From Rhodospirillaceae bacterium (GTDB taxonomy: Bacteria > Pseudomonadota > Alphaproteobacteria > Reyranellales > JAQSWP01), in NCBI GenBank assembly GCA_040255215.1, contig JBDZUM010000008.1:1-57496 (forward strand): a DNA stretch of 57,496 nt, in the 5' to 3' direction. Made by a program: the position numbers and the translations under genes. Below the pieces are notes generated by a model. That model had not been told where the DNA came from. It saw nothing but the letters and a program-made list of their open reading frames with translations, and did no database searches. Of this stretch, positions 42,777 to 50,829 are shown in pieces (positions within the stretch are counted from its first letter, which is position 1; each line of letters begins with the position of its first letter).

Positions 42777-43301
42777 ATGACTATCGCTTGGGGGCGCGCA
42801 GTCACCTGCCTACTAGTTCTGACGATCCTGCCCGCGGCAGCGCCGGCGCAGGATGTCGTCAAGCTTGGCGATTTCGAGGATTGGGCCGCCTATTCATCGG
42901 GCGCCGGCGACAGCAAGGTCTGCTACGTCGTCAGCGAGGCCATGGCGCGCCAGCCGGCGCAGCCCGAGCGGCAGGCCTATGTCTATCTGGCCCACCGCCC
43001 AGGCAAGAAAGCCTACAACGTCGTGATGGTCTATTCCGGCTATCCCTATGCGAGCGACAGCATTGTGCAGGTCGAGATCGGTCGCCAGGAGTTCCGGCTC
43101 TTCACCCATCGCGAAACCGCCTGGACCGCCGACGCCGATACCGACCAGGCCCTGGAACGCGCCATGCGGCTGGGCCGCAAGATGACGGTAAAATCCTCGC
43201 CGGCCGAGGGAAACCCGAGCGTCGACACCTATTCGCTGACCGGCGTCGCCAAGGCCATCGACCGCATCAGCATCGCCTGCCCGCGCGACCGCCGCCGCTG
43301 A
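42777..43301 (+). CDS. Invasion associated locus B (IalB)-like periplasmic protein
   Basis: Signal peptide, FEDW...CY, DTYSLTG...C. Confidence 0.82.
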   Translation: MTIAWGRAVTCLLVLTILPAAAPAQDVVKLGDFEDWAAYSSGAGDSKVCYVVSEAMARQPAQPERQAYVYLAHRPGKKAYNVVMVYSGYPYASDSIVQVEIGRQEFRLFTHRETAWTADADTDQALERAMRLGRKMTVKSSPAEGNPSVDTYSLTGVAKAIDRISIACPRDRRR

Positions 43302-43308
43302 GGCGCCG

Positions 43309-43998
43309 TTACATCACGCGATTTCGGATGATGACCACGGAGGTTGCCTCGACCTCGCGGGCATCGAACAGATCGGCATCGTCCATTTCGCCCGAAACCG
43401 AGACCCGATCGCCGATATCGATCACCGGGGCTTCCGGTCCGCTGGCGTCGCCCAGATCGACGTCGATGGTGCGATAGCCGGTATTGACGGCGATTTCGTC
43501 GCCGTCGATAGACGTCACGGTGCCGGTGAAGGCCACCCATTCGTCGTCTTCCGCGGCGCCAACCAAGGCGGTCTGACCAACGGACGAGGCGTAATAGCCG
43601 TCCTCCTCATCGGCCGGGTTGGCGGAGAAATATTCGTTGCGCCTGGGCACGAAAACCGAACTCGCCTCGATCTTCTTCTTTTCGTAGAGATCGTTGTCGA
43701 CCCGGCCGGTGACGGTCACCCGGTCGCCGTTGCGCAGATAGCCCTGGTCCTTCCAGCCGTAGCCGTCCATCTCGATGTCGATCTGGCCGTCGCCGTATTT
43801 CAGCGTGAACCGGTCGGCCGAGACGGATTGCACGGTGCCCGTCAGGCTGATCCACTCCATGTTGATCGCCTGCTCCACGGTAGCCTTGTCCGTGGCGGCC
43901 GCATTGGAAGCCTTTTCGCGCATGTCATCGGCGATCGCCGGCGCCGTGGCGACGGCAAAAAGGCAGCTGCTGGCAAGGATTGCTGTCAAATATCGCAT
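43309..43998 (-). CDS. Secreted acidic protein with two OB-fold-like repeats (YgiW/YdeI-like)
   Basis: Signal peptide; repeats WISLTGTV...GDRVTVTGRVD and WVAFTGTV...GDRVSVSGEMD. Confidence 0.75.
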   Translation of the reverse strand: MRYLTAILASSCLFAVATAPAIADDMREKASNAAATDKATVEQAINMEWISLTGTVQSVSADRFTLKYGDGQIDIEMDGYGWKDQGYLRNGDRVTVTGRVDNDLYEKKKIEASSVFVPRRNEYFSANPADEEDGYYASSVGQTALVGAAEDDEWVAFTGTVTSIDGDEIAVNTGYRTIDVDLGDASGPEAPVIDIGDRVSVSGEMDDADLFDAREVEATSVVIIRNRVM

Positions 43999-44132: not shown

Positions 44133-44217
44133 GGACGAATTTGCGGCGACGACGGCCCGGTGGGGCGATACCGGAAGCCCATTGCCCGGGCTGCGGGAAG
44201 GGACTATCTCAGGCCCG

Positions 44218-45366
44218 ATGCACGAGCCCATCCAGACCATCCTCGAACCGGTCCGCCGTAACGACACCCGCCGCAATCTGGTCGGGCTGTCGCGGGCCGA
44301 GCTGAAGGCCGAGCTCGTCGAACAGGGTCTGGAGCCGTTCCGCGCCGGCCAGATCTGGCACTGGATCTACTGGCACGGCGTCACAGATTTCGCGCGCATG
44401 AGCAATATCGCGCGCAAGGTGCAGCAGCGCCTGGAGGACCTCTACATCATCGAAAGGCCGCAGACCGTCACCGAGCAGCGTTCGTCCGACGGCACGCGCA
44501 AATGGCTGCTGCGCCTGGCCGACGGCAACGAGGTCGAGAGCGTCTATATCCCCGAGGACGATCGCGGCGCGGTCTGCGTCTCCAGCCAGGTCGGCTGCAC
44601 CCTGACCTGCTCGTTTTGCCATACCGGCACCATGCCGCTGGTGCGCAACCTCGACCCGGCCGAGATCGTCGGCCAGTTCATGGTCGCCCGCGATTCCTAC
44701 GCCGAATGGCCCTCGCCGACCGGCGAATCGCCTCGCCTGCTGAGCAACATCGTGATGATGGGCATGGGCGAGCCGCTCTACAATTTCGACAACGTCGCCA
44801 AGGCGCTGACCATCGTCATGGACGACCAGGGCATCGCCCTGTCGCGCCGGCGCATCACGCTCTCGACCTCGGGCGTCGTGCCGATGATGCAGCGCTGCGG
44901 CGAGGAGCTGAACGTCAACCTGGCCGTCTCCCTGCACGCGGTAAGCGACGAGCTGCGCGACGAGCTGGTGCCGATCAACCGCAAATGGCCGATCGCCGAA
45001 CTGCTCGACGCCTGTCGCGCCTATCCCGGCGCCAAGAACGCCCGCCGCATCACCTTCGAGTACGTCATGTTGAAGGGGCTGAACGATTCGGACGCCGATG
45101 CGCACGAACTGGTGCGCCTGCTGCGCGACATACCGGCCAAGGTCAACCTGATACCGTTCAATCCCTGGCCGGGCGCGCCCTACGAATGCTCCTCGAACAA
45201 CCGCATTCACCGCTTCGCCGAAATCCTCAACCAGGCCAATCTCGCCGCACCCGTCCGCACCCCGCGCGGGCGCGATATTCTGGCGGCCTGCGGTCAGCTG
45301 AAATCCGCCTCGCAGCGCAGCAGACGGACCAGCACAGGGTCGGCCAAGCTGCGGCCGGCGGGTTGA
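44218..45366 (+). CDS. rlmN: 23S rRNA m2A2503/tRNA radical SAM methyltransferase
   Basis: [30 protein letters not shown]. Confidence 0.96.
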
Positions 45367-45645
45367 GAGCACGTGAGCGGACAGAGCGCGCCACCGCGAC
45401 TTTCTTCCTGTTCACTTCAATGAATCGTCCTAGTGCTTTGACTCTATGCGATTCATTTAGCAATCGAGCAATTTTCGTTTGTTTTCAGAGCGGTATACTA
45501 AAGCGGTATCCGAAAGTGCGATGGTCCTAATACTGCGATGATTCATTGCAGCGCATAAAGTTGCCGTGCTTTTATCGGGTGTGGGGTTAAACCATCAGTC
45601 GCGTACGCGTTTAAGAAATACAATTCTACGGACAGGGAGACTCGG

Positions 45646-46134
45646 GTGCAAAAAGGCATCCCGGACGGCGTAACGACGCCGATCGAAGACACCGGCTCGC
45701 GTCAGCGCAGCGCCGGCGATCGGTTTCGCGCCATGAGCGAGGCTGCGGCTACGGCCCGGCTCGGCAACATGTCTGCGCTCGACCCCAGCTTGGTGGTGCG
45801 TGCGCTCGAGGAAGCGACATCGCGCATGAAGCAGGAATTCCTGTGCGCGCTGGCCGACCGCCTCGTTGAAATCCTGATGGGCGAGCGCTTTCCGGCCGCA
45901 ACGGCCCTGGCGCTCGCGCACGCGAATCCGTCGCTGCTTGAAGCAGTGCGGGGCGACATGCCGCAGGTGGTGGCCATGGCCAACGCCGCGCGGCTGTTCA
46001 ACGGCCAGCATCTGGTCGAGAACGCCCCGACCCCGGAACAGATTATATCGGCCGAAATCCCCGGCGTGACCGACAGCAAGCATTGGGCTGCGCTGCAGGG
46101 CATTCCGACGGATGGCTCGATGCCGCCCAATTAA
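45646..46134 (+). CDS. Hypothetical helical protein directly upstream of luxR
   Basis: AGGGAG SD then GTG; GC content rises at the start; stop is 25 nt before luxR. Confidence 0.7.
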   Translation: MQKGIPDGVTTPIEDTGSRQRSAGDRFRAMSEAAATARLGNMSALDPSLVVRALEEATSRMKQEFLCALADRLVEILMGERFPAATALALAHANPSLLEAVRGDMPQVVAMANAARLFNGQHLVENAPTPEQIISAEIPGVTDSKHWAALQGIPTDGSMPPN

Positions 46135-46159
46135 CGGCACGGGCAAAGGAGTCCGCGCG

Positions 46160-46873
46160 ATGTCGATTGAAACCGCAGCCTTCTCGTTCGTCGAGCAGAT
46201 CGCCGACTGCAACGATGCCGACCGCATCGCCAGGCAGTTCCGCTCGCTGCTGGAGGGGATGGGGTACGATCGTATCCTGGTATCCGACCTCAAGGATCCG
46301 GTTGGGACGCAGCCGCAGAAGCTCGTCACCTGGCCGGACATGTGGCGCCAGCGCTATCGCGAGAAGGGCTATTTCTATCGCGATCCGGTGGTGTTCGACA
46401 CCTTGCACCGCACCGATCCGTTCACCTGGGCCGAATCGCTCGACCGGCACAATTCGCCGTTCGCCGAGCGCTTCTACGACGAGGCGCGCGATTTCGGCAT
46501 GCGTCATGGCTACGTGATCCCGATCCACGGCGCCCGCCGCTACCGCGGCATCGTCACCGTGGCCGGCGAGCACGTCGCGCTCGACTCGCGCAGCAAGGCC
46601 GCCATCCACCTGATGGCGATCTACTGCCACGACAAGCTCTCCCGTCTGCGGCAGAACGAGGAGACCGGCGAGCGCAAGAAGCTGACGCCGCGCGAGCGCG
46701 AATGCCTGCACTGGGCGGCCGTGGGCAAGACCGACGACGAAATCGCCTCGATCCTGACCATCAGCTCGACCACGGCGCACTGGCACATCGAGAACGCCAA
46801 GCGCAAGTTCGACGTCGCCACCCGCGTCCAGGCCGTTCTGGCCGCTTTCCGGGCCGGCGAACTGAACATCTGA
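46160..46873 (+). CDS. luxR: LuxR-family AHL-responsive regulator
   Basis: Autoinducer domain W...Y...DP...W...G; HTH LTPRERECLHWAAVGKT; AAGGAG SD. Confidence 0.93.
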   Translation: MSIETAAFSFVEQIADCNDADRIARQFRSLLEGMGYDRILVSDLKDPVGTQPQKLVTWPDMWRQRYREKGYFYRDPVVFDTLHRTDPFTWAESLDRHNSPFAERFYDEARDFGMRHGYVIPIHGARRYRGIVTVAGEHVALDSRSKAAIHLMAIYCHDKLSRLRQNEETGERKKLTPRERECLHWAAVGKTDDEIASILTISSTTAHWHIENAKRKFDVATRVQAVLAAFRAGELNI

Positions 46874-46907
46874 GAACAAAAACCCGACCGGTTACCCCGG
46901 CACCTCG

Positions 46908-46937
46908 AACCCGGCCTTTTGGCCGGGTTTTTTATTT
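46908..46937 (+). terminator. Rho-independent terminator after luxR
   Basis: AACCCGGCC-TTTT-GGCCGGGTT then a T tract. Confidence 0.88.
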
Positions 46938-47047
46938 GTTTTCAGATATTTATCGGGTGATTACTGGCAGTTCTTTATAAAAACTTATAAAGATCTTGTA
47001 GTCCATTGATTCGAAACAATTTTTCTTGTCTCTATTATTCGGTATAT

Positions 47048-47067
47048 CCCCCTCTGATCGGCGGGGT
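47048..47067 (+). promoter_or_regulatory. Candidate lux-type box for luxI
   Basis: 20-bp imperfect palindrome CCCCCTCTGATCGGCGGGGT centred on GATC, about 33 nt before a CTATCT -10-like hexamer. Confidence 0.6.
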
Positions 47068-47123
47068 GTGCGCAACCCCATCTCATCCCACTATCTGGCC
47101 AACCAAACACGGGGTGTGTGGAA

Positions 47124-47789
47124 ATGATTGAGGTCGTTACCAAGGACAACGCCCATCTCTACGGCGAAGCGCTCGAAGAGATGTTCCGGCTGCGTCATGA
47201 AATCTACGTCAAGGAGCGCAACTGGGTCGATCTCGACCGCGGCGACGGGCTGGAGAAGGACCAGTTCGATGGCCCGGACGCGACCTACCTGATCGCGCTG
47301 GATGAAAACCGGGTCAGCGGCTGCGTGCGCCTGCTGCCCACCACGGGAGCCCATCTGCTGGGCGACGTCTTCCCGCATCTGTGCGAGGCCCAGCCGGTGC
47401 CGCGCAGCGAGGACGTCTACGAAATCACCCGGCTGTGCGCCCATCGCGACTATCGCCTGCCCGGCCAGGGCGGCGTGCTCGACAAGCTGGTCTGCGGCCT
47501 GTTCGAACATGCGCTGGCGCTGGGCCTGCGGCACATGAGCATGGTCACCGACGCCTTCCTCGTCGCCAAGGCGCTGCAGTTCGGCTGGAAGCTGCGGCCG
47601 CTGGGCCTGCCGACGCCGTATCGCGAGGGCACCTGCATCGCCGGCCTCGTCACCGTCGACCACGCGACGCTGGAAGGCTTCTATCGCACTGCCGGGATCA
47701 CCGGCCCGGTCCTGAACTACGTCGGCATCCCCAAGCCGTCGGTGGATCTGCCGGGCGAACATGTGGAGCGTCCCGCCAGCCTGCACTGA
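47124..47789 (+). CDS. luxI: Acyl-homoserine-lactone synthase
   Basis: FRLRHEIYVKERNW, EKDQFD, RLLPT, YEITR, GWKLRPLGLP. Confidence 0.93.
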   Translation: MIEVVTKDNAHLYGEALEEMFRLRHEIYVKERNWVDLDRGDGLEKDQFDGPDATYLIALDENRVSGCVRLLPTTGAHLLGDVFPHLCEAQPVPRSEDVYEITRLCAHRDYRLPGQGGVLDKLVCGLFEHALALGLRHMSMVTDAFLVAKALQFGWKLRPLGLPTPYREGTCIAGLVTVDHATLEGFYRTAGITGPVLNYVGIPKPSVDLPGEHVERPASLH

Positions 47790-47820
47790 GTTCAACACTC
47801 CCTGCCGTCCAAACTAGACC

Positions 47821-47855
47821 CCGGCCAGGACAGTTTTCCTGGCCGGTTTTCTTTT
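47821..47855 (+). terminator. Rho-independent terminator after luxI
   Basis: CCGGCCAGGA/TCCTGGCCGG stem then TTTTCTTTT. Confidence 0.88.
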
Positions 47856-47864
47856 GTGCGGCGT

Positions 47865-49578: not shown

Positions 49579-49608
49579 CCGCGCCGATTTCAAGCCCCGG
49601 AGAATGCG

Positions 49609-50829
49609 ATGCAACGCGGCGACGTGAAGAAGGTTGTGCTGGCCTATTCGGGCGGACTTGACACCTCCGTCATCCTGAAATGGCTGCAAAGCACCTATGG
49701 CTGCGAGGTCGTCACCTTCACCGCCGATCTCGGCCAGGGCGAAGAGCTGGCGCCGGCCCGCAAGAAGGCGGAGATGCTGGGCATCAAGCCCGAGAACATC
49801 TTCATCGACGATCTGCGCGAGGAATTCGTCCGCGACTTCGTCTTCCCGGTGTTCCGCGCCAACGCCCTCTACGAGGGCCAGTACCTGCTCGGCACGTCGA
49901 TCGCCCGGCCGCTGATCTCCAAGCGCCAGATCGAAATCGCCAAGCTGACCGGCGCCGATGCGGTCGCGCACGGCGCGACGGGCAAGGGCAACGACCAGGT
50001 GCGCTTCGAACTCGGCTACTACGCGCTGAAGCCCGACATCAAGATCATCGCGCCGTGGCGCGAATGGGACCTGACCTCGCGCACCAAGCTCATCGAGTTC
50101 GCCGAGAAGCACCAGATCCCGATCGCCAAGGACAAGCGCGGCGAGGCGCCGTTCTCGGTCGACGCCAATCTTCTGCACTCCTCGTCGGAGGGCAAGGTGC
50201 TGGAGGATCCGTGGGAGGAGCCCGACGAATCGGTCTACCAGCGCACGATCTCGCCCGAGGCGGCGCCGGACAAGCCGACCTATATCGAGATCGAATTCGC
50301 CAAAGGCGATCCCATCGCCATTGACGGCGAGAAGATGTCGCCGGCCACCTTGCTGGCGAAGCTCAACGAGCTGGGCGCCGCCAACGGCATCGGCCGGCTT
50401 GATCTCGTCGAGAACCGCTTCGTCGGCATGAAGAGCCGCGGCGTCTACGAGACGCCGGGCGGCACCATCCTGCACCACGCCCATCGCGGCATCGAAAGCA
50501 TCACGCTCGACCGCGGCGCCATGCATCTCAAGGAAGAGCTGATGCCGCGCTACGCCGAGCTGGTCTACTACGGCTTCTGGTTCGCGCCCGAGCGGGAGAT
50601 GCTGCAGGCGCTGATCGACAAGAGCCAGGAGCGGGTCGAGGGCACGGTGCGGCTGAAGCTCTACAAGGGCAACGCCACCGTGGTCGGCCGCAAGTCGCCG
50701 CAGAGCCTCTACAGCATGAAGCACGTCACGTTCGAGGAGGACGCCGGCGCCTACGACCAGAAGGACGCGGCCGGCTTCATCAAGCTCAACGCCCTGCGCC
50801 TGCGCCTGCTCAAGACCGTGCGCGGCTGA
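49609..50829 (+). CDS. argG: Argininosuccinate synthase
   Basis: [33 protein letters not shown]. Confidence 0.97.

Follow-up and report, generated by a model that had tools for sequence, protein, structure and literature searches.

What is a gene for a 162-residue protein doing immediately 5' of the gene for a quorum-sensing receptor? The question is raised by a stretch of 57,496 nucleotides from a Rhodospirillaceae bacterium of the order Reyranellales (contig JBDZUM010000008.1; the whole stretch is called the window below, and its GC content is 67%). Here, an open reading frame (ORF) that we call ORF162 is followed by luxR, which encodes a receptor and transcription factor of the N-acyl-homoserine lactone (AHL) type, and then by luxI, which encodes the AHL synthase, all three genes lying on the + strand of a 2.5-kb block at 45367-47864. 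A first-pass annotation of the window had described this block as a three-gene quorum-sensing (QS) cassette between rlmN and argG, with the ORF as a co-transcribed modulator. The elements it listed were all found at the places it gave, although the real 3' neighbour of the cassette is a methyltransferase gene, with argG two genes further on. In our analysis the architecture of the cassette and the reality of ORF162 as a gene hold, and its role as a modulator of LuxR is put forward tentatively. What is new is the orphan protein family; a QS circuit with an accessory gene is of an already known kind.

ORF162 occupies 45646-46134 on the + strand, so that, as first annotated, it ends 25 nucleotides (nt) before the luxR ATG at 46160; it starts with GTG, 6 nt behind a Shine-Dalgarno sequence, AGGGAG, at 45634-45639. 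Its GC content by codon position, 0.69/0.50/0.80, follows the pattern of coding DNA, the third-position value (GC3) of the neighbouring genes being 0.87-0.92. The frame is open in all eight genomes of the window's family (G000-G007, two genera), with proteins that are 71-98% identical, and 11 more clusters (at the 90% level) were found in metagenome protein sets. The Shine-Dalgarno sequence, in the form cAGGGAGa, is identical at the eight loci, and the start codon is conserved as GTG in one genus, to which the window belongs, and as ATG in the second. The ratio of nonsynonymous to synonymous substitution rates (dN/dS, by the Nei-Gojobori method) was 0.11-0.23 in seven pairs, and in the core of the gene, codons 64-146, the proportion of synonymous differences (pS) was 0.55-0.65 against 0.07 for nonsynonymous differences (pN); two pairs of luxR genes gave values of the ratio (omega) of 0.04 and 0.07. 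An alignment of 18 ORF162 sequences contains 82 invariant columns; the N-terminal 25 residues are variable, and the stretch F65-L98 is invariant, broken only by one position that is F or Y. Because synonymous sites are near saturation and the amino acids nearly invariant, the constraint lies on the protein rather than on an RNA or DNA element. Judged by these sequence comparisons, ORF162 is a genuine, translated, lineage-specific gene.

ORF162 apparently opens a transcript that it shares with luxR, luxI being a separate unit behind a terminator. The gap between ORF162 and luxR (46160-46873 on the + strand, 237 aa) measures 19-25 nt at the eight loci and in each of them holds luxR's own Shine-Dalgarno sequence, which in the window is AAGGAG at 46146-46151. 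A terminator scan found no terminator-like site within 45565-46887 and a strong one directly 3' of luxR; this intrinsic terminator, on the + strand, has its hairpin at 46907-46930 (listed to 46940) and consists of a 10-bp stem, which is kept within the genus, and a T-run. The scan also recovered the other terminator reported at first pass, a hairpin at 47821-47846, which is bidirectional and lies between luxI (47124-47789 on the + strand, 221 aa) and the convergent methyltransferase gene. RNA data came as Logan contigs from four runs of metatranscriptome sequencing, two of estuary and two of soil origin, belonging to three studies. In every run a contig from the RNA library bridges the ORF162/luxR junction (45590-46401, 45593-46479, 45976-46349 and 46052-46265), in line with the co-transcription that had been proposed; the longer bridging contigs are approximately 97% alike and therefore derive from close relatives. 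Against a single transcript it must be said that RNA libraries may hold DNA and that a contig spanning two genes does not prove one message. The leader at 45380-45545 and the spacer at 46791-47039 lacked RNA-contig cover, which was not used as evidence.

The leader from the rlmN stop to the ORF162 start (45367-45645, 279 nt, + strand) is AT-rich, as had been noted: the GC content is 0.43 over 45400-45599, compared with 0.67 in the whole window. Both estuary contigs end within it, one at 45590 and the other at 45593, where adapter letters follow; this hints weakly that the message begins some 55 nt ahead of the ORF162 start codon. From the sequence we infer a candidate ORF162-luxR promoter at 45546-45575 on the + strand, which would fit these contig ends and which comprises a -35 element, TTGCAG (45546-45551), a 15-nt spacer and TGcTTTTAT (45567-45575); TTG(C/T) and TG(C/T)TT are conserved at all eight loci, and a consensus promoter scan did not call the site. 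The leader also contains a motif, CCTAATAC (about 45526-45533), that is conserved across both genera, together with further motifs conserved within the genus. Lying upstream of the candidate promoter, CCTAATAC and its flanking short repeats, which both genera likewise retain, may be a regulator binding site for the ORF162-luxR unit.

The distribution of the three genes was then compared with that of their flanks. The order rlmN-ORF162-luxR-luxI is found in eight of eight genomes of one Reyranellales family (f1, that of the window), and ORF162 also adjoins luxR in both of the metagenome contigs retrieved; a homologue search scored for luxR adjacency, the check suggested with the original annotation, thus places ORF162 beside luxR at 10 of 10 loci, all of one lineage. 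Between the genera, ORF162 is 71-75%, LuxR 76-79% and LuxI 70-77% identical, a similar level of conservation for all three. Orthologous luxI genes (70-100% identical) occur only in this family, in seven of seven genomes besides the window's own; in the sister family (f2), seven of 53 genomes have any luxI, and these are merely 29-35% identical. At the rlmN loci of 17 sister-family genomes, none has ORF162, luxR or luxI at that site. Here rlmN adjoins a convergent methyltransferase gene, followed by argG, at 10 of the 17 loci; the methyltransferase gene lies 370-840 nt from rlmN at four, and is not within the 1.5 kb fetched at the remaining three. Since the trio is missing from the sister family's site, 45367-47864 is a unit insertion or deletion relative to an ancestral rlmN-methyltransferase-argG arrangement. 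By this comparison, ORF162-luxR-luxI is a single QS module whose members were acquired, or lost, together at the site between rlmN on one side and the methyltransferase gene and argG on the other. ORF162 was not found anywhere without luxR-luxI, either in the genomes of the family or in a search of 1.84 billion proteins. The Reyranellales that carry the cassette are uncultured, and their source metagenomes come from water, sludge, compost and rhizosphere.

Two genomes add observations of their own. In the closest relative of the window, the metagenome-assembled genome (MAG) G005, luxR carries a 2-nt insertion, with a frameshift at about codon 84 (about 46408 in the window), and a 3-nt deletion; both of its neighbours are undamaged there, ORF162 at 98% and luxI at 100% identity, and the shifted luxR frame reflects an error of assembly or else a pseudogene of recent origin. 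The genome from which the window comes (G000) has, on other contigs, a second and distant luxI homologue (29% identity, C129:25665-26195) and a further luxR homologue (32%, C156:2898-3566), so the organism probably runs more than one AHL circuit.

The ORF162 protein has a mass of about 17 kDa and is acidic (isoelectric point 5.2); it has no hydrophobic segment (the maximum 19-residue Kyte-Doolittle mean is 1.2) and is predicted to be cytoplasmic. AlphaFold2, run on the 18-row alignment, predicts an all-helical protein with low confidence (mean predicted local distance difference test score, pLDDT, 53.9; predicted template modelling score, pTM, 0.28). The remark at first pass that the ORF resembles no recognised family was borne out by every library searched. 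Pfam returned no family at E values up to 0.1, and neither Pfam nor NCBIfam showed an enzyme or helix-turn-helix (HTH) family signature; a profile search of the PDB gave a best E value of 1.1, and the ESM Atlas held no usable match to the whole protein. From a library of 1.84 billion representative proteins, with no restriction on length, a hidden Markov model (HMM) built from the 18 members recovered only its own cluster (E up to 0.001). Because the E value of a library-wide search is harsh, we added a targeted search of 1752 six-frame pieces of at least 50 aa, taken from within about 1.5 kb of 42 luxR/luxI homologues of other Alphaproteobacteria, and there the HMM found nothing similar (best E value 1.7). 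On the strength of these searches, the ORF162 family is confined to one bacterial family and to the luxR-luxI cassette.

Three candidate relatives were considered and rejected. The sole NCBIfam match, at 0.03, is at chance level; a fold search with the low-confidence model gave generic helical matches, with a best Z score of 5.6, and no lead; and a weak match in a Reyranella genome (G031, E value 3e-4) is a 301-aa, arginine-rich, antisense-looking frame away from luxR, which we regard as spurious.

Both of the other proteins of the cassette belong to well-defined families. LuxR contains the Autoind_bind (PF03472, 3.2e-30) and GerE (PF00196, 3.9e-15) domains, both above their cut-offs. Its full-length alignments in the PDB, with RhlR, TraR and LasR, have E values of 1e-20 to 1e-23, the best being those with RhlR and TraR at about 1e-22. 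The ligand-pocket columns W62, Y66, D75-P76 and W90 match the W, Y, DP and W of the TraR of NGR234 (2q0o) in a HMMER alignment, residues that we take to be W57, Y61, D70, P71 and W85 in the TraR numbering. The nearest LuxR relatives outside the family are 56-57% identical and lie on 1-kb contigs; the next are about 40% identical and are labelled BjaR1. LuxI matches Autoind_synth (PF00765) at 2.1e-25, and its PDB matches are 6wn0, a 4-coumaroyl-homoserine lactone synthase (5.8e-38), 6wns (2.3e-34) and 5w8a (9.4e-31), compared with 2.7e-16 for the TofI-type 3p2f, 1.5e-11 for LasI and 2.2e-4 for EsaI, which are synthases of the acyl-acyl carrier protein type. Being far closer in sequence to the first three than to the last three, LuxI is placed in the RpaI/BjaI (acyl-CoA-type) clade, and its signal may be an unusual homoserine lactone derived from acyl-CoA.

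The spacer between the luxR terminator region and luxI had been singled out as AT-rich with two palindromes. It is indeed AT-rich (190 nt; GC 0.43 at 46900-47099) and the palindromes are present, at 46969-46996 and 47005-47020 (neither assigned to a strand), but they are conserved only in the nearest relative (locus L002). In this they are unlike an 18-bp dyad, CCCCTCTGATCGGCGGGG, at 47049-47066 (likewise without strand), the core of which is identical at all eight loci amid an otherwise diverged spacer. Eighteen base pairs is the length of a lux/tra-type box, and in the second genus position 12 is A instead of G, a change that renders the dyad more palindromic. This dyad, which ends 57 nt before the luxI ATG, rather than the AT-rich palindromes, is the probable LuxR box, to judge by its conservation. 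It is the sole match in the window at up to three mismatches; elsewhere in the genome there are two one-mismatch matches, both intragenic, and no regulon can be deduced from them. RNA contigs over luxI start at 47073-47081, only about 7-15 nt 3' of the dyad, in two runs that sampled different habitats; the luxI contig of a third run starts at 47037, so that no luxI start site can be claimed. If 47073-47081 were the true start, the dyad would overlap the core promoter, suggesting repression and not activation.

How, then, might ORF162 work? We propose, by analogy, that it acts on LuxR as an anti-activator or a stabiliser, and we give this reading a probability of about 0.4. Encoded on the same mRNA as LuxR, ORF162 would be produced in constant proportion to the receptor, as the shared message leads us to expect; being small, acidic, cytoplasmic and by prediction helical, it would most probably bind LuxR directly, and would either raise the AHL threshold as an anti-activator or stabilise apo-LuxR; and LuxR with its signal would act at the 18-bp dyad to drive luxI. 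The small proteins that sequester LuxR-type regulators (TraM, QteE and QslA) provide a precedent for such a modulator. The bolder proposition, that ORF162 represents a previously undescribed type of LuxR partner, a leader cistron of the receptor mRNA that sets the threshold of an acyl-CoA-type AHL circuit, seems to us doubtful.

Several points, besides the possible DNA in the RNA libraries, weigh against action of ORF162 on LuxR. All of the linked instances are kin of one family, in which rlmN is equally constant, so that the linkage amounts to effectively about one evolutionary event. ORF162 has no similarity to TraM, to RsaM or to any Pfam family, and its structure model, at the mean pLDDT given above, is poor. 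There is no copy of the dyad upstream of ORF162, and ORF162-luxR therefore does not look autoregulated via that site. Finally, ORF162 is intact in G005 beside the luxR with the 2-nt insertion; a genuine insertion would mean that the ORF can survive next to a luxR that no longer works. A prediction of the complex of LuxR (50 rows) with ORF162 (18 rows) scored 0.00; made without controls, it gave no verdict and was used neither way.

The absence of ORF162 jointly with luxR-luxI from the sister family's site, its occurrence nowhere without them, and the retention of a 19-25-nt spacing across two genera despite saturated synonymous divergence speak against the idea that ORF162 is a mere passenger, a real protein with a role unrelated to QS that happened to travel, and to be transcribed, with luxR. 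That idea, which we think rather unlikely, nevertheless draws on ORF162's lack of any detectable relation to QS accessory proteins, on a linkage to luxR known from a single lineage, and on its intact frame beside the frameshifted luxR of G005. Less probable again is that ORF162 is a component of the QS circuit that does not bind LuxR. It might be an RsaL-like DNA-binding co-regulator of the luxI or ORF162 promoter, and the invariant helical core of about 40 residues could be a DNA- or protein-binding surface, but of an HTH or enzyme family signature there is, as stated, none in Pfam or NCBIfam. It might otherwise help in signal synthesis, as LuxI belongs to the acyl-CoA-type clade and as a third linked gene is needed to make the signal in Mesorhizobium; the text available from that work, however, places the helper gene 8 bp after the synthase gene, whereas ORF162 is transcribed with luxR and not with luxI (PMC10470506). 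That ORF162 is no gene, being a chance open frame in DNA of 67% GC or a conserved non-coding leader of luxR, is barely credible: long ORFs are common in GC-rich DNA, two antisense ORFs overlap this one and its GC3 is slightly under that of its neighbours, but its synonymous sites are close to saturation with the amino acids invariant, its Shine-Dalgarno sequence and start codon are conserved, and the frame stays open in eight of eight genomes.

The proposal that ORF162 modulates LuxR bears on how QS circuits are tuned. Brakes such as TraM, RsaL, RsaM, QslA and QteE decide when a QS circuit fires, and each was found in a cultured model organism; the acyl-CoA-type AHL clade is little studied, and synthetic biology looks to its receptors as a source of orthogonal parts. 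Should ORF162 act on LuxR, the accessory family and the arrangement would both be new, the protein being encoded upstream of the receptor and co-translated with it in a fixed ratio; otherwise ORF162 is no more than a lineage-specific gene whose function is unknown.

A second, unrelated leader ORF was seen among the other alphaproteobacterial loci. An orphan ORF of 106 aa ends about 18 nt before the gene for a LuxR homologue that is about 40% identical to the LuxR of the window, with a convergent luxI; it lies at about 2216-2533 on the minus strand of L045 (genome G111) and at about 1021-1341 of L046 (genome G283). The two copies are 65% identical and match no Pfam family, and the database homologues are five, all annotated 'hypothetical', from Zavarzinia sp. 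and a MAG labelled Novosphingobium. Kinship between ORF162 and the 106-aa ORF was rejected (hhalign probability 0.1%). As part of the bolder proposition above, the two cases suggest that the pairing of a small leader ORF with luxR in a bicistron may recur in this receptor clade as a design that has gone unnoticed until now.

Upstream of the cassette lies rlmN (44182-45366; RlmN_N and Radical_SAM domains), and, before it, a gene of the IalB family (PF06776, 4.6e-07; 42777-43301) and one for a two-domain BOF/OB-fold protein (43309-43998), the latter on the minus strand and with an apparent signal peptide; we regard this as ordinary context. Downstream, the convergent gene for a class-I S-adenosylmethionine-dependent methyltransferase (47865 to about 48800, minus strand; Methyltransf_25 at 3.6e-23) and an ORF of 190 aa, for which Pfam gave no family, separate luxI from argG (49606-50829). 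In three of the loci of the window's genus that reach that far (L011, L012 and L014) the methyltransferase gene is missing, and the next genes after luxI are the 190-aa ORF and argG. No mobility genes were seen at the flanks, in agreement with the first-pass annotation.

A literature search, which was non-exhaustive and left survey supplementary tables outside its scope, found no account of an ORF162-luxR-luxI cassette or of QS in Reyranellales; the Reyranella papers that it listed, 10 out of 40, were community surveys. Among the known accessory systems, TraM resembles ORF162 in being small and encoded beside a luxR-type gene, and ORF162, like TraM, could bind the receptor and raise its threshold. 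TraM is helical, and ORF162 is likewise predicted to be helical. The two differ in length (162 aa against a family of 102 positions) and in setting, ORF162 being chromosomal, with no conjugation genes, and lying upstream of, and apparently co-transcribed with, its receptor gene. ORF162 was not matched by Prok-TraM (PF09228), which was present in the Pfam library searched (E up to 0.1); a whole-genome search with PF09228 also gave no match, but neither did the control genomes. TraM forms a non-functional complex with TraR, according to the available part of one survey (PMC3386692).

Sequestration of a LuxR-type protein, the mechanism proposed for ORF162, likens it also to QslA and QteE, to which it showed no homology in the 1.84-billion-protein search, the Pseudomonas aeruginosa proteins being assumed to be in the library. 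The genes for QslA and QteE are not known to belong to the operon of lasR or to that of rhlR. Both proteins are anti-activators that sequester LuxR-type regulators and so raise the threshold, as the accessible text of PMC5767178 describes them.

With RsaM and RsaL, ORF162 shares the character of a third small, QS-dedicated gene within a luxR/luxI locus. The surveys of locus topology, in the portions available, find third genes mainly between luxR and luxI, namely RsaL, RsaM, MupX and a few hypotheticals, and describe RsaM as occurring essentially only in QS contexts and as lacking similarity to characterised proteins (PMC3386692, PMC10710839). RsaM and RsaL usually form their own transcription units between luxR and luxI (the part of PMC10710839 consulted), whereas ORF162 lies 5' of luxR, on the same strand and 25 nt away. 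The core of RsaM (pfam16245) is a five-stranded antiparallel beta sheet around two helices, by the same partial source (PMC10710839), compared with helices only in the low-confidence model of ORF162, and ORF162 had no match to pfam16245 among the Pfam families.

The R1-I1 circuit of Mesorhizobium, another alphaproteobacterium, likewise combines a luxR-luxI pair, whose synthase is of the acyl-CoA type, with a third gene that is linked to the pair and conserved. There, as far as the available text goes, the third gene belongs to the crotonase superfamily, is co-transcribed with the luxI that it follows, and is the one required for signal synthesis (PMC10470506); it is thus an enzyme gene 3' of luxI, where the present cassette has a non-enzymatic-looking orphan 5' of luxR. 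RpaR-RpaI and BjaR1-BjaI share with the cassette the tandem order of receptor gene and then synthase gene, the structural relatives of LuxI (6wn0, 5w8a) and the BjaR1 label of LuxR relatives. They differ in that the receptors are only about 40% identical and in that no ORF162-like gene stands beside the 42 other alphaproteobacterial luxR/luxI loci. ORF162 thus belongs to no described family, yet it may work in the manner of an anti-activator.

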